Shown: positions 5,201 to 45,755, counted from the first letter of the stretch. The stretch is 50,514 nucleotides of DNA from a virus (IMGVR_UViG_2534681773_000022); one strand, 5' to 3'. Made by a program: numbers and translations. The notes: generated by a model from the sequence alone, not told the origin.

Positions 5201-5498
5201 TGCTTTTTGTTGCAAAGTAATTTTCAAGGGGTTCTATTCGAATCCCTTTCTTTTTCATTAACAAGCCAAACCCCTTATCAATGATGTCCATTAGATCCAG
5301 GAAGTATTTTTCATGTAAATCCTGGTTATCAGAGAGCTGCTTCTCTTCGTACAGCCCGATAAAGGCTCGGCGTACGTTACCGGATATATTGTCGATGGTT
5401 TCTTTTTCTACGGTACTCAGGTCAAGAGTCGCCAGTTGAGAGCGAACCACATTCGATGCCATTTCCTGGAATGGTACTGGTAAATCTTTAAATTCCAT
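5178..5498 (-). CDS. Hypothetical early-left protein
   Basis: 106-aa ORF (MEFKDLPVPF...) with GAGG 6 nt upstream; second gene of the leftward operon. Confidence 0.45.
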   Translation of the reverse strand: MEFKDLPVPFQEMASNVVRSQLATLDLSTVEKETIDNISGNVRRAFIGLYEEKQLSDNQDLHEKYFLDLMDIIDKGFGLLMKKKGIRIEPLENYFATKSINSFDSK

Positions 5499-8339: not shown

Positions 8340-8762
8340 GTGGCAAAAGTTTTTACACAAGAAGAGCGGGAAAAAATTAAAGGGCAGGTTGTTGAACTCG
8401 TACGCCAGAGTGGGCGCGAGACGTTACGACAACTGGAAACTAAAACTGGGGCAACAAGATATCTGATGAGCGTTCTGGCCAGAGAGCTGGTTGCCAGTGG
8501 CGATGTATACAACTCTGGTTACGGGTTATTCCCGTCTGAACAGGCGCGTAAGGACTGGCAAAATGCCCGTAAAAAGCTCTCAAGGGCAAAGCTGAAGAAA
8601 CCATCTGCGGTTGATCCGGACCTTATCTGGTCATTACCTGACGGAGAAATACGTCGCTACGACAGGCGCCTAAACATAATCTGTCGCGAGTGCCGGAAGA
8701 GTGAAGCTATGCAGCGTGTACTGGCGTTTTATCAGGGGAATTTTGAGGAGGTGGTGCGGTGA
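8340..8762 (+). CDS. Hypothetical protein (GTG start, strong RBS)
   Basis: 140-aa ORF with AGGAGG 5 nt upstream of GTG; occupies the position of a helicase loader but is too small and has no ATPase motifs. Confidence 0.5.
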   Translation: MAKVFTQEEREKIKGQVVELVRQSGRETLRQLETKTGATRYLMSVLARELVASGDVYNSGYGLFPSEQARKDWQNARKKLSRAKLKKPSAVDPDLIWSLPDGEIRRYDRRLNIICRECRKSEAMQRVLAFYQGNFEEVVR

Positions 8763-9013
8763 GTGAATCAAAATGCCAGGTTAATGGCAACAAGATAGAA
8801 CCATGTGCAGCACTGGCAAAGTCCCTTGAGCGTGATGCTGAATACACGATGCGAAAAGGTCTGCTGATATACAAAATCTGGAATGAGAGTTTAACTCGCG
8901 GTCCTGATTTTGTGATGTTTCGTTCCGGTGAATTTTCTAAATTACCAGTTCTGGTTTCATTTTGTCCGTTCTGTGGTGAAAGTCTGAAAACGTGGGAGAA
9001 CAGAAATGAATGA
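8759..9013 (+). CDS. Hypothetical protein (four Cys, possible zinc-binding)
   Basis: 84-aa ORF, GAGGAGG RBS, start overlaps the upstream stop (GTGA); paired Cys motifs CxxxC and CPFCG. Confidence 0.45.
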   Translation: MSESKCQVNGNKIEPCAALAKSLERDAEYTMRKGLLIYKIWNESLTRGPDFVMFRSGEFSKLPVLVSFCPFCGESLKTWENRNE

Positions 9014-39847: not shown

Positions 39848-40591
39848 ATGACAGAGACAGAATCAGCGATTCTGGCGCACGCCCGGCGATGTGCGCCAGC
39901 GGAGTCGTGCGGCTTCGTGGTAAGCACGCCGGAGGGGGAAAGATATTTCCCCTGCGTGAATATCTCCGGTGAGCCGGAGGCGTATTTCCGGATGGCTCCG
40001 GAGGACTGGCTGCAGGCAGAGATGCAGGGTGAGATTGTGGCGCTGGTCCACAGCCACCCCGGTGGTCTGCCCTGGCTGAGTGAGGCTGACCGGCGGCTGC
40101 AGGTGCAGAGCGATTTGCCGTGGTGGCTGGTCTGCCGGGGGGCGATTCACAAGTTCCGCTGTGTGCCGCATCTCACCGGGCGGCGCTTTGAGTACGGGGT
40201 GACGGACTGTTACACACTGTTCCGGGATGCTTACCATCTGGCGGGGATTGAGATGCCGGATTTTCATCGCGGGGATGACTGGTGGCGTCACGGTCAGAAT
40301 CTCTATCTTGACAATATGGAGGCTACTGGTTTTTACCGTGTCGCACTGACAGAGGCGCAGCCGGGCGATGTGCTGCTGTGCTGTTTTGGTTCATCGGTGC
40401 CGAATCACGCCGCCATTTACTGCGGCGACGGTGAGCTGCTGCACCATATTCCTGAACAACTGAGTAAACGAGAGAGGTATACCGACAAATGGCAGCGACG
40501 CACACACTCCCTCTGGCGTCACCGGGAATGGCACGCATCTGCCTTTACGGGGATTTGCAACGATTTGGCCGCCGCATCGACCTTCGTGTGA
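39848..40591 (+). CDS. K: Tail assembly protein gpK (JAMM/MPN + NlpC/P60-like)
   Basis: ORF with HSHPGG metal-binding motif and a C-terminal Cys/His peptidase-like domain; 3' end overlaps I. Confidence 0.8.
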   Translation: MTETESAILAHARRCAPAESCGFVVSTPEGERYFPCVNISGEPEAYFRMAPEDWLQAEMQGEIVALVHSHPGGLPWLSEADRRLQVQSDLPWWLVCRGAIHKFRCVPHLTGRRFEYGVTDCYTLFRDAYHLAGIEMPDFHRGDDWWRHGQNLYLDNMEATGFYRVALTEAQPGDVLLCCFGSSVPNHAAIYCGDGELLHHIPEQLSKRERYTDKWQRRTHSLWRHREWHASAFTGICNDLAAASTFV

Positions 40592-41130
40592 AAACGGGGG
40601 CTGAAGCCATCCGGGCACTGGCCACACAGCTCCCGGCGTTTCGTCAGAAACTGAGCGATGGCTGGTATCAGGTACGGATTGCCGGGCGGGATGCAGGAGA
40701 AACCGAATTATCATCCCGTCTTAATGAGCCGCTGGCAAATGGTGCCGTGATCCACATCGTGCCGCGTCTTGCGGGAGCAAAAAGTGGCGGTGTGTTTCAG
40801 GCGGTGCTGGGTGCGGCGTTGATTGCTACGGCAATCTGGATGCCGGGGATCAGTATCGCTTTCAGTGACATTCTCTTTTCAATGGGTGCGGCGATGACGC
40901 TTGGTGGTGTGGCGCAGATGCTGGCACCGAAAGCCAGAACTCCCCGTACACAGACAACGGATAACGGCAAACAGAACACCTATTTCTCCTCACTGGATAA
41001 CATGGTTGCCCAGGGCAATGTCCTGCCTGTTCTGTACGGTGAAATGCGCGTGGGGTCACGTGTGGCATCTCAGGAGATCAGCACGGCAGATGAAGGGGAT
41101 GGTGGTCAGGTTGTGGTAATTGGGCGGTAA
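40489..41130 (+). CDS. I: Tail assembly protein gpI
   Basis: 213-aa ORF in the lambda I position; ubiquitin-like N-terminus. Confidence 0.85.
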   Translation: MAATHTLPLASPGMARICLYGDLQRFGRRIDLRVKTGAEAIRALATQLPAFRQKLSDGWYQVRIAGRDAGETELSSRLNEPLANGAVIHIVPRLAGAKSGGVFQAVLGAALIATAIWMPGISIAFSDILFSMGAAMTLGGVAQMLAPKARTPRTQTTDNGKQNTYFSSLDNMVAQGNVLPVLYGEMRVGSRVASQEISTADEGDGGQVVVIGR

Positions 41131-41203
41131 TATTATTTTACTCATGTTCTAACTAATTTAATATTTATATCGAACACTGATAATTATTCTATTGGTTAGC
41201 TAT

Positions 41204-41542
41204 ATGAACAAAACGATTTTATTCTGCACGATTATTGCCTTAACAGGATGTAAATCTTTGGATTACGTAAAATCCGGAAAACCTGTAATGGAAGGTAATT
41301 CATTAAAAAATATTGATGAATTGTCAGGCTGCATATCCAGACAATGGGCTGGTAATGGAACACCTATAACATCCCTTCCTATTGAGAATGGGGTAAGCCT
41401 TTTAGTTCCACAGGCTATGGGGGGATATGATGTTGTGCTTGATATCAAAAAAGCAGGAAATGGCAGTAGTTTTACTCTTTATGAACGTGTACCAGCATTA
41501 ACGCCAAAAATTTTTGCTGATAGTGTTAATGCATGTAAATAA
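41204..41542 (+). CDS. Lipoprotein moron between I and J (candidate superinfection-exclusion or surface lipoprotein)
   Basis: 112-aa ORF with signal peptide and lipobox (MNKTILFCTIIALTGCKS); AT-rich island with its own terminator; lambda has no gene here. Confidence 0.55.
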   Translation: MNKTILFCTIIALTGCKSLDYVKSGKPVMEGNSLKNIDELSGCISRQWAGNGTPITSLPIENGVSLLVPQAMGGYDVVLDIKKAGNGSSFTLYERVPALTPKIFADSVNACK

Positions 41543-41566
41543 TAGTTAATCCTGTCGTAACTCATG

Positions 41567-41593
41567 AGCCGCCTTTTGGGCGGCTTTGTTGTT
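41567..41593 (+). terminator. Intrinsic terminator after the lipoprotein moron
   Basis: AGCCGCC-ttttg-GGCGGCT hairpin followed by a T-rich tract. Confidence 0.6.
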
Positions 41594-41608
41594 TATGGAG
41601 TGTGAGGA

Positions 41609-44600
41609 ATGGGTAAAGGAAGCAGTAAGGGGCATACCCCGCGCGAAGCGAGGGACAACCTGAAGTCCACGCAGCTGCTGAGTGTGATCGATGCCATCAG
41701 CGAAGGGCCGGTTGAAGGTCCGGTGGACGGATTAAAAAGCGTGCTGCTGAACAGTACGCCGGTGCTGGACAGTGAGGGGAATACCAATATATCCGGTGTC
41801 ACGGTGGTGTTCCGGGCAGGTGAGCAGGAGCAGACACCGCCGGAGGGATTTGAATCCTCCGGCTCCGAGACGGTGCTGGGTACGGAAGTGAAATATGACA
41901 CGCCGATCACCCGGACCATCACGTCGGCAAACATCGACCGTCTGCGCTTTACCTTCGGTGTGCAGGCACTGGTGGAAACCACCTCAAAGGGGGACAGGAA
42001 TCCGTCGGAAGTCCGCCTGCTGGTTCAGATCCAGCGTAACGGTGGCTGGGTGACGGAAAAAGACATCACCATTAAGGGCAAAACCACCTCGCAGTATCTG
42101 GCCTCGGTGGTGGTGGATAACCTGCCGCCGCGCCCGTTTAATATCCGGATGCGCAGAATGACGCCGGACAGCACCACAGACCAGCTGCAGAACAAAACGC
42201 TCTGGTCGTCATACACCGAAATCATCGATGTGAAACAGTGCTACCCGAACACGGCACTGGTCGGCGTGCAGGTGGACTCGGAACAGTTCGGCAGCCAGCA
42301 GGTGAGCCGTAATTATCATCTTCGCGGGCGCATTCTGCAGGTGCCGTCGAACTATAACCCGCAGACGCGGCAATACAGCGGTATCTGGGACGGAACGTTT
42401 AAGCCAGCATACAGCAACAACATGGCCTGGTGTCTGTGGGATATGCTGACCCATCCGCGCTACGGCATGGGGAAGCGTCTCGGTGCGGCGGATGTGGACA
42501 AATGGGCGCTGTATGTCATCGGCCAGAATTGCGACCAGTCGGTGCCGGACGGCTCTGGTGGCACGGAGCCGCGCATCACCTGTAATGCGTGGCTGACCAC
42601 ACAGCGCAAGGCGTGGGATGTTCTCAGTGATTTCTGCTCGGCGATGCGCTGTATGCCGGTATGGAACGGGCAGACGCTGACGTTCGTGCAGGACCGACCG
42701 TCGGATAAGGTGTGGACCTATAACCGCAGTAATGTGGTGATGCCGGATGATGGCGCGCCGTTCCGCTACAGCTTCAGTGCCCTGAAGGACCGTCATAATG
42801 CCGTTGAGGTGAACTGGATTGACCCGGATAACGGCTGGGAGACGGCGACAGAGCTTGTTGAAGATACGCAGGCCATTGCCCGTTACGGTCGTAACGTCAC
42901 GAAGATGGATGCCTTTGGCTGTACCAGCCGGGGGCAGGCGCACCGCGCCGGGCTGTGGCTGATTAAAACGGAACTGCTGGAAACGCAGACCGTGGACTTC
43001 AGCGTGGGTGCGGAAGGGCTTCGCCATGTACCGGGGGATGTCATTGAAATCTGCGATGATGACTATGCGGGTATCAGCACCGGCGGGCGCGTGCTGGCGG
43101 TGAACAGCCAGACCCGGACGCTGACGCTCGACCGTGAAATCACGCTGCCATCCTCCGGTACCACGCTGATAAGCCTGGTTGACGGTCAGGGTAATCCGGT
43201 CAGCGTGGAGGTCCAGTCCGTCACCGACGGCGTGAAGGTGAAAGTGAGCCGTGTTCCTGACGGTGTTGCAGAATACAGCGTGTGGGGGCTGAAGCTGCCG
43301 ACGCTGCGCCAGCGCCTGTTCCGCTGCGTGAGTATCCGTGAGAACGATGACGGCACGTATGCCATCACCGCCGTGCAGCATGTACCGGAGAAAGAAGCCA
43401 TCGTGGATAACGGGGCGCACTTTGACGGTGACCAGAGCGGCACGGTGAATGGTGTCACGCCGCCAGCAGTGCAGCACCTGACCGCCGAAGTCACTGCAGA
43501 CAGCGGGGAATATCAGGTGCTGGCGCGATGGGACACACCGAAGGTGGTGAAGGGCGTGAGCTTCCTGCTCCGTCTGACCGTAACAGCGGACGACGGCAGT
43601 GAGCGGCTGGTCAGCACGGCCCGGACGACGGAAACCACATACCGCTTCACGCAACTGGCGCTGGGAAACTACAGGCTGACAGTCCGGGCGGTAAATGCCC
43701 GGGGGCAGCAGGGCGATCCGGCGTCGGTATCGTTCCGGATTGCCGCACCGGCAGCACCGTCGAGGATTGAGCTGACGCCGGGCTATTTTCAGATAACCGC
43801 CACGCCGCATCTTGCTGTTTATGACCCGACGGTACAGTTTGAGTTCTGGTTCTCGGAAAAGCGGATTACCGATATCAGGCAGGTTGAAACCACAGCCCGC
43901 TATCTTGGTACGGCGCTGTACTGGATAGCCGCCAGTATCAATATCAAACCGGGCCATGATTATTATTTTTACGTTCGCAGTGTGAACACCGTTGGCAAAT
44001 CGGCATTCGTGGAGGCTGTCGGTCGGGCGAGCGATGATGCGGAAGGTTACCTGGATTTTTTCAAAGGAGAAATCGGGAAAACACATCTGGCCCAGGAGTT
44101 GTGGACGCAGATTGATAACGGTCAGCTTGCGCCGGACCTGGCTGAAATCAGGACGTCCATTACGAATGTCAGCAATGAAATCACGCAGACCGTCAATAAA
44201 AAACTGGAAGACCAGAGTGCGGCAATCCAGCAGATACAGAAAGTTCAGGTTGATACAAATAATAACCTGAACAGCATGTGGGCCGTGAAACTGCAGCAGA
44301 TGAAGGACGGACGCCTTTATATTGCGGGTATCGGAGCCGGTATTGAGAATACGCCAGCAGGTATGCAGAGTCAGGTGCTTCTGGCTGCTGACCGGATTGC
44401 GATGATTAATCCTGCGAATGGCAACACAAAGCCGATGTTTGTTGGTCAGGGCGATCAGATATTCATGAACGACGTGTTCCTGAAACGCCTGACGGCTCCG
44501 ACCATTACCAGCGGCGGTAATCCTCCGGCATTTTCCCTGACACCGGACGGGCGGCTGACGGCGAAAAATGCCGATATCAGCGGTAACGTGAATGCGAACT

Positions 44601-45088
44601 CCGGGACGCTCAACAACGTCACGATTAACGAGAACTGTCGGGTTCTGGGAAAATTGTCCGCCAACCAGATTGAAGGCGATCTCGTTAAAACAGTGGGCAA
44701 AGCTTTCCCCCGGGACTCCCGTGCACCGGAACGGTGGCCATCAGGGACCATCACCGTCAGGGTTTATGACGATCAGCCGTTTGACCGGCAGATTGTTATT
44801 CCGGCGGTGGCATTCAGCGGCGCTAAACATGAGCGGGAGAATAACGATATTTATTCGTCATGCCGCCTGATAGTACGGAAAAACGGTGCTGAAATTTATA
44901 ACCGTACCGCGCTGGATAATACGCTGATTTACAGTGGTGTTATTGATATGCCAGCTGGTCGCGGCCACATGACGCTGGAGTTTTCGGTGTCAGCATGGCT
45001 GGTGAATAACTGGTATCCCACAGCAAGTATCAGCGATTTGCTGGTTGTGGTGATGAAGAAAGCCACCGCAGGCATCAGTATCAGCTGA
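41609..45088 (+). CDS. J: Central tail fibre / host-specificity protein gpJ
   Basis: 1159-aa ORF matching my recollection of lambda J along its whole length, including the C-terminal receptor-binding region. Confidence 0.9.
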
Positions 45089-45155: not shown

Positions 45156-45755
45156 ATGCGTAAAGTTTGTGCAGTCATTTTGTCCGCAGCCATCTGTCTG
45201 TCCGTATCCGGTGCGCCTGCATGGGCGTCTGAACATCAGTCCACACTGAGCGCGGGGTATCTTCATGCCCGTACGAACGCTCCCGGCAGCGATAATCTGA
45301 ACGGGATTAACGTGAAATACCGTTATGAGTTTACGGACGCGCTGGGGCTGATTACGTCCTTCAGTTATGCCAATGCTGAGGATGAGCAAAAAACGCACTA
45401 CAGCGATACCCGCTGGCATGAAGATTCCGTGCGTAACCGCTGGTTCAGCGTGATGGCGGGGCCGTCTGTACGCGTGAATGAATGGTTCAGCGCGTATTCG
45501 ATGGCGGGTGTGGCTTACAGCCGTGTGTCGACTTTCTCCGGGGATTATCTCCGCGTAACTGACAACAAGGGGAAAACGCACGATGTGCTGACCGGAAGTG
45601 ATGACGGTCGCCACAGCAACACGTCTCTGGCGTGGGGGGCTGGCGTGCAGTTTAACCCGACCGAATCCGTGACCATTGACCTTGCTTATGAAGGTTCCGG
45701 TAGTGGCGACTGGCGAACGGATGCATTTATTGTTGGTATCGGATACCGTTTCTGA
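45156..45755 (+). CDS. lom: Outer-membrane beta-barrel protein Lom (Ail/Lom/PagC family)
   Basis: 199-aa ORF with signal peptide; C-terminus (…AYEGSGSGDWRTDAFIVGIGYRF) matches lambda Lom. Confidence 0.85.
   Translation: MRKVCAVILSAAICLSVSGAPAWASEHQSTLSAGYLHARTNAPGSDNLNGINVKYRYEFTDALGLITSFSYANAEDEQKTHYSDTRWHEDSVRNRWFSVMAGPSVRVNEWFSAYSMAGVAYSRVSTFSGDYLRVTDNKGKTHDVLTGSDDGRHSNTSLAWGAGVQFNPTESVTIDLAYEGSGSGDWRTDAFIVGIGYRF

Follow-up and report, generated by a model that had tools for sequence, protein, structure and literature searches.

What kind of gene occupies the junction of tail genes I and J in a lambdoid prophage, where lambda-type phages pass directly from I to J across a spacer of ≈60 nt, and what might its product do? 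The window, by which we mean the whole 50,514-nt stretch of DNA analysed here, is a lambdoid prophage, and a near-identical prophage lies between ompW and yciE in UTI89 with an integrase gene at its left end, the two being offset by ≈4.3 kb at their left ends. An earlier note on this DNA had read the I-J junction as carrying a lipoprotein moron with its own terminator, possibly an exclusion factor of the Cor or Llp type.

Insertion of an AT-rich block between I and J

The junction is flanked on the left by the tail assembly gene I (40489–41130, + strand; Pfam Lambda_tail_I, E = 4e-24; RefSeq 'tail assembly protein') and on the right by J, the tail tip and host-specificity gene (41609–45088, + strand). 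Alignment with three insert-free I-J junctions that were inspected directly, those of lambda and mEp460 among them, delimits a 435-nt AT-rich block on the + strand (41131–41565, GC 0.32–0.40) that begins where homology with insert-free phages ends, at the stop codon of gene I, and that replaces ≈17–20 nt of the ancestral spacer. GC content is 0.315–0.395 over 41100–41599 versus 0.55–0.62 on either side, and that of the lipoprotein gene itself is 0.363 versus 0.573 and 0.589 in the 1.5-kb flanks; its enterobacterial homologues also stand below their neighbours (0.41–0.43 versus 0.48–0.55). Neither lambda nor mEp460 has the block in its I-J spacer, and thousands of E. coli prophages lack it too: the I-J flanks match 8800 junctions in 4355 of 5426 complete E. 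coli genomes, with the block present in only 334 genomes, and the insert-free matches are 412–418 nt shorter than the query. None of the 110 phage records that match the I-J query covers 80% of it, and among the matches listed the phage I-J spans measure ≈1075–1113 nt versus the 1501-nt query. The AT-rich block is therefore an insertion in the moron slot between I and J, with a horizontally acquired gene.

Morons in the sense of Hendrix and Juhala are extra DNA of distinct composition, with their own promoter and terminator and with expression from the prophage (PMC3594210). The block is extra DNA that is missing in close relatives, and its composition is unlike that of the neighbouring genes. 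The AT-rich island at 41131–41608, the intergenic character of the site in lambda and the insertion itself all hold up as described earlier; the insertion is absent from most close relatives, and its slot is that of gp22 and gp23 of HK97, which are annotated 'moron product' and 'reverse moron product'. The HK97 morons are likewise extra DNA of foreign composition followed by a hairpin, located between T and H, K and I, and I and J, and homologues of the window gene occur in all three of these slots. The HK97 moron between T and H is gp15, a small inner-membrane protein that is expressed from the prophage and acts in superinfection exclusion (PMC3594210), unlike the window product, which is a predicted outer-membrane lipoprotein. 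Homology to HK97 gp22, from the same slot as the window gene, was considered and rejected (hhalign probability 0.5%). Between K and I, HK97 also holds an unannotated 32-aa ORF with one hydrophobic segment (L097:5061–5159; MYTVGFGWIFVGIFIGLILWFFINRASVRANR) and an annotated putative terminator at 5300–5325; this ORF is a candidate small membrane-protein moron.

A 521-nt region is found in 340 of the 5426 complete E. coli genomes (≈6%) and is 100% identical in UTI89, S88, APEC O1, IHE3034, NU14, ATCC 11775 and others. Among the carriers, it is ExPEC and APEC strains that match best at the DNA level, which could reflect a role in virulence or fitness or merely a shared lineage.

Immediately before J lies a terminator-like hairpin, GAGCCGCCT-TTT-GGGCGGCTT, with an interrupted T-run (41566–41596, + strand), that ends 12 nt from the J start codon; its 9-bp GC-rich stem (41566–41586) is followed by TGTTGTTTAT, with a folding energy of −21.5 kcal/mol and z = −2.2. 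The alignment places the resumption of homology with insert-free junctions exactly at this hairpin, with GAGCCGCC-TTTT-GGGCGGCTTTGTTGTTTATGGAG in the window where lambda and mEp460 show GAAACCGCC-TCCG-GGCGGTTTTGTCGTTTATGGAG. N15 has AGCCACC-TCCG-GGTGGCTTTTTTT before its J homologue, annotated as a putative terminator (L091:1308–1331), and HK97 has AGCCACC-TTTG-GGTGGCTTTTTT before J (L097:6608–6630), so that a hairpin with a T-run stands directly before J in lambda (lambda_ev203, L083), mEp460 (L082), N15, HK97 and the window, with or without cargo. Between these hairpins, changes in one arm of the stem are matched by compensating changes in the other (AAACCGCC/GGCGGTTT, GAGCCGCC/GGCGGCTT and AGCCACC/GGTGGCT), which argues that a structural element close before J is conserved, and suggests an RNA element within the late operon that may serve as terminator, attenuator or stabiliser. 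The hairpin appears to be a resident feature that was not imported by the insertion; with the same site occupied at insert-free junctions and in N15 and HK97, the idea that the moron brought its own terminator was rejected, and this part of the earlier description is not borne out. The Klebsiella copies (between K and I) and Enterobacter copies (between T and H) do carry T-run hairpins of their own.

The prophage holds other cargo as well. Downstream of tRNA genes and the Q region, a 623-aa ORF (19650–21521, + strand) with DUF1737, SASA (sialate O-acetylesterase) and DUF6645 domains is a NanS-p-like esterase of the kind found in Stx-type prophages, and between the lysis and terminase genes a 355-aa ORF (24229–25296, − strand; Pfam Beta_protein PF14350, E = 8e-56) is likely a further moron. 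Accessory cargo at the right end includes an Ail/Lom outer-membrane protein gene that directly follows J (45156–45755, + strand) and, past the tail-fibre assembly gene, a class I SAM methyltransferase gene in the reverse orientation (49520–50188, − strand). ARAGORN calls two tRNA genes at 17959–18120 (+ strand), one with anticodon CAU (called Met) and one Arg-UCG; in the corresponding region of the UTI89 prophage, the annotation lists tRNA-Ile, Arg and Arg.

A conserved family of predicted lipoproteins

The gene within the block (41204–41542, + strand) encodes a 112-aa prolipoprotein and follows a 73-nt spacer (41131–41203, + strand) that contains weak promoter-like and Shine-Dalgarno-like sequence only. 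The reading frame extends over 41192–41542 from a TTG codon, and the ATG at 41204 gives the 112-aa product, with homologues beginning at this same methionine. The N-terminus reads MNKTILFCTIIALTGC followed by KSLDYV, in which residues 1–15 form a signal peptide composed of an n-region (MNK), a 10-residue hydrophobic core and the lipobox LTGC; the arrangement MNK-TILFCTIIA-LTGC fits the lipobox pattern [LVI][ASTVI][GAS]C. The lipobox cysteine is Cys16 (codon 41249–41251), residue +2 is lysine, and the mature protein of 97 aa retains two conserved cysteines, Cys43 and Cys111. The 112-aa ORF with its signal peptide and LTGC lipobox is thus confirmed where it had been placed. The predicted protein would be lipidated at Cys16 and sorted to the outer membrane by the Lol pathway, since the +2 residue is Lys and not Asp, and would expose an outer-membrane-anchored domain to the periplasm. 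An AlphaFold2 model (mean pLDDT 83.6, pTM 0.75) has a β-α-β4-α layout, in which a Cys43-Cys111 disulfide probably links the two helices. A role in the virion or in tail assembly was rejected because the protein is predicted to be exported and lipidated, whereas tail assembly is cytoplasmic.

The window protein matches PHROG 914 with E = 7.3e-33, residues 1–112 aligning to positions 1–118 of the 118-position profile, and all of 52 diverse relatives match the same profile. A word-indexed search finds enterobacterial homologues at 48–62% identity in Klebsiella, Enterobacter/Citrobacter, Kluyvera and Jejubacter, and an exhaustive profile search returns 125 representatives (50% clustering) at E ≤ 1e-3, nearly all of ≈105–125 aa. 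Across the 52 members, which share 16–51% identity with the window protein, the lipobox Cys, Cys43 and Cys111 are invariant and P27, K35, W48 and G63 nearly so, and every one has xxGC, xxAC or xxSC at the lipobox position; among the 49 that could be parsed, none has Asp at +2 and 42 have exactly two further cysteines. The enterobacterial copies give dN/dS of 0.06–0.28, with dS saturated. We conclude that the ORF is no accidental reading frame, because it has full-length homologues at 48–62% identity, low dN/dS, a PHROG 914 match and a confident model, and that PHROG 914 is a real family of predicted lipoproteins under selection.

Family members are annotated 'hypothetical protein' or 'lipoprotein'; the RefSeq entry for the window protein (WP_001332187.1), found in identical form on at least 1000 contigs, is itself a 'hypothetical protein'. 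The window protein has no Pfam match at E ≤ 10, no PADLOC match and only a sub-threshold signal-peptide match in NCBIfam, and scans of the protein together with its 52 relatives against all three collections give matches at the signal-peptide level only (VirB7, Slp, RcsF and the like), with no consistent Pfam family among the relatives at E ≤ 0.01. A profile search of PDB sequences yields nothing below E = 0.5, and tblastn of the window protein against 50,697 phage records yields no match at 1e-5; a distant family member used as the query finds only Pseudomonas phage PseuP_222 among the phage records. At the level of fold, a BFVD search returns uncharacterised phage proteins only, the best being A0A1B0VMC6 of Pseudomonas phage phiAH14a. 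The nearest fold is that of Flpp3 of Francisella, a Flpp3/TBP-like β-α-β4-α unit at 6–9% identity; the likeness is one of fold alone, Pfam DUF3568, to which Flpp3 belongs, does not match, and the fold is generic, being common to DUF302, KA1 and BamC-N. Literature searches found no paper on the PHROG 914 lipoproteins. The family is best described as catalogued and uncharacterised, of a kind (tail-module moron, small outer-membrane lipoprotein) that is well known. Split tblastn alignments in some E. coli copies (L067:3279–3613, L068:8001–8335 and L069:8001–8338) are consistent with frameshifts, whether these arose by decay or through errors of assembly.

Positions and transcription on mobile elements

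PHROG 914 genes are a promiscuous cargo of mobile elements. They lie between I and J in E. coli prophages, between K and I in prophages of Klebsiella and Kluyvera, a Jejubacter-like prophage, one metagenomic contig and the isolated Pseudomonas phage PseuP_222, and between the chaperone and tape-measure genes, in the T-H slot, in HK97-like prophages of Enterobacter. Others stand outside tail modules. In two different prophages of Burkholderia gladioli (L085:7125–8342 and L095:6125–7342) a family member follows the gene of a cI-like HTH_3 repressor as its next downstream neighbour in the same orientation; a capsid-forming PICI-like element has its copy on the opposite strand, a DNA-polymerase-A phage carries one that diverges from the replication genes, and a further one lies in a genomic island adjoining alaS-csrA on one metagenomic contig. 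The repressor-adjacent, opposite-strand and island positions imply expression in the lysogen or independently of the late operon; to these can be added the T-run hairpins that the Klebsiella and Enterobacter copies have to themselves.

Several of these neighbourhoods bear description in their own right. The two Burkholderia gladioli prophages differ in their replication modules, and the place of the family member in them is rexAB-like. The metagenomic contig with the opposite-strand copy (L094, 13.7 kb) has it at the end of a module of D5-type primase, capsid, protease, portal, TerS, TerL and head-closure genes without any visible tail genes, and looks like a capsid-forming PICI-type satellite with a lipoprotein as cargo. 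In the Jejubacter-like IMG/VR prophage, ≈4.8 kb of cargo lies between K and I (L070:4063–8911). There the PHROG 914 gene is preceded directly by an XRE-type HTH gene and followed directly by the gene for a second, unrelated lipoprotein of 149 aa (8406–8855); the cargo also includes an RHH-like protein and two ORFs that are anti-repressor-like or KilA-N-like. PseuP_222 has a 268-aa 'putative lipoprotein' (L093:6178–6984) immediately upstream of its PHROG 914 homologue, again between K and I, so this slot is able to hold two tandem lipoprotein genes.

A standard scan of 40900–41800 gives no σ70 match on the + strand, and the best match in a relaxed scan, TTAATA-15 nt-GATAAT at 41158–41184, agrees at 9 of 12 positions and has a poor spacer; at neither threshold was a convincing promoter found upstream of the window gene or of the Klebsiella copy, which has an upstream gap of only 32 nt. 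The Shine-Dalgarno sequence before the window gene is weak. All copies in tail modules are oriented as the tail genes are, so late-operon transcription would, by analogy with lambda biology, include the window gene regardless, and, with no convincing promoter of its own, the gene may be read only as part of that operon.

Candidate roles at the envelope

Our best guess, which we advance tentatively and by analogy, is that the window gene encodes a candidate envelope-level exclusion factor made in the lysogen. The small outer-membrane lipoproteins Cor and Llp, whose genes adjoin tail or receptor-binding genes, and the slot moron gp15 of HK97 are exclusion factors, and the reading draws on the lipoprotein architecture, the slots shared with gp15, the repressor-adjacent positions and the recurrence of the family in tail-tip modules from Pseudomonas to E. 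coli. A single-gene moron would have entered the I-J spacer, one of three classic moron slots in tail modules of the lambda/HK97 type, in a lambdoid prophage at the ompW site; its prolipoprotein would be lipidated at Cys16 and passed by the Lol machinery to the inner leaflet of the outer membrane, there to display a 97-residue periplasmic domain of β-α-β4-α fold that is probably stapled by the Cys43-Cys111 disulfide. Incoming phages would then fail because the lysogen, or the late-infected cell, has an altered envelope. We find no link by sequence or fold to any known exclusion or defence protein in Pfam, NCBIfam, PADLOC, the fold searches or direct comparison with Cor and Llp.

The most specific form of exclusion, a Cor- or Llp-type block of the outer-membrane receptor used by the prophage's own J, has architecture in its favour: a small predicted outer-membrane lipoprotein with a conserved cysteine pair, encoded beside tail-tip genes, resembles Cor of φ80, N15, T1 and HK022 (a small phage lipoprotein that has a Cys pair and whose gene lies in the tail-fibre region) and Llp of T5 (a lipoprotein encoded beside a tail gene). 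T5 Llp, a disulfide-containing lipoprotein of the outer membrane, acts from the periplasmic face, and Cor travels with phages that use FhuA. The window protein is nevertheless longer, as had been noted, at 112 aa versus 78 aa for Cor and 77 aa for Llp, and the reported lack of direct similarity holds: hhalign against N15 Cor aligns residues 2–32 only, which is the signal peptide and a few residues beyond, a profile comparison with T5 Llp aligns the signal peptide alone, and the fold matches include no Llp structure. The window protein does not match PHROG 1119, the Cor family, to which 2 of the 52 relatives match marginally at 5e-4. Gene order differs too, since the window gene lies upstream of J and 3.4 kb from its receptor-binding end. 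In N15 the J homologue ends ≈1.1 kb before cor, which comes three genes later, and in T5 the immediate neighbour of llp is the receptor-binding gene oad, from which llp is transcribed divergently, using promoters of its own. A comparison of 61 E. coli loci, 59 of them IMG/VR prophage contigs with a full-length lipoprotein copy, finds that most copies are 99–100% identical to the window protein while the adjacent C-terminal 309 aa of J fall into at least five identity classes (96–100, 84, 78–79, 64–66 and 52–54%); J proteins beside the homologues range from ≈1160 to >3100 aa. Conversely, the C-terminal 299 aa of the window J are 97% identical to those of VT1-Sakai, PPompW prophages, PhiR55_1 and vB_EcoS-640R1, the last two of which have no insert at the I-J junction. 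That identical lipoproteins accompany at least five J domains, and that the window's J domain also occurs in phages that lack the gene, argues against masking of the phage's own receptor, which we consider distinctly unlikely; the uncoupling from J weakens this form of exclusion and not exclusion in general. The proposed kinship with Cor and Llp is weakened accordingly, by the signal-peptide-only alignments, the Flpp3/TBP-like fold and the independence from the J domain.

A role unrelated to phages, as a host fitness or virulence conversion factor that confers serum or stress resistance or mediates host interaction, strikes us as rather unlikely, although it has a precedent in Bor of lambda (Bor/Iss), a prophage-encoded outer-membrane lipoprotein moron of ≈100 aa that is dispensable for phage growth; bor sits in the lysis region. 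Flpp3, the nearest fold, is a virulence-associated lipoprotein, with which a host-fitness role would fit equally well, and the best-matching carriers are ExPEC and APEC strains; set against this, the fold match is weak and the fold generic, the ExPEC association may be clonal, and the family recurs in tail-tip modules from Pseudomonas to E. coli and beside repressors, positions typical of exclusion genes. It is less probable, and in our estimate unlikely, that the gene is a late-cycle helper, transcribed through Q antitermination with the late operon, whose product would modify the envelope of the dying cell without any expression in the lysogen, for example by sparing progeny from loss on debris or by blocking late superinfection. 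T5 Llp is credited with protecting progeny by this route, and the tail-gene orientation of every tail-module copy, the lack of a credible promoter (most acutely in Klebsiella) and the homologue in the isolated phage PseuP_222 all accord with it; yet the copies downstream of repressors, on the opposite strand in the PICI-like element and in the genomic island cannot be late-operon passengers, and most relatives that share these tail genes lack the gene. A neutral hitchhiker or decaying gene would account for the few copies with frameshift-like split alignments and for the weak Shine-Dalgarno sequence in the window, but we regard it as very improbable given the dN/dS values, the cysteines and motifs that stay invariant at roughly 25–50% identity, the confident model and the persistence of the exact protein on so many contigs.

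If envelope exclusion is the function, the uncoupling of the gene from its own J domain makes the target more likely an envelope component used by other phages, or a periplasmic step after adsorption such as penetration by the tail tip or tape measure, with own-receptor masking in the manner of Cor or Llp less likely. Extended to the family, PHROG 914 might constitute a widespread, unrecognised class of envelope exclusion proteins in Proteobacteria that halt lambda-type tail tips after adsorption without masking receptors; members would act at the inner face of the outer membrane and keep the tape measure or tail tip from penetrating the periplasm. This broader proposal is speculative and we think it unlikely; if true, it would explain both the recurrence of the genes between T and H, K and I, and I and J from Pseudomonas to E. 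coli and their independence from the J domain.

Tail-module morons are a known source of lysogenic-conversion and exclusion genes, few of which have an assigned function, and the present family moves between the classic slots T-H, K-I and I-J, the immunity regions of prophages and elements that resemble satellites. We regard the PHROG 914 lipoprotein as a well-defined candidate, easy to express, and not as a discovery. Should it exclude phages, it would represent a new envelope-level defence family of relevance to phage therapy against ExPEC, Klebsiella and Enterobacter; should it instead change the envelope or virulence of its host, it would be a new conversion factor of ExPEC prophages.
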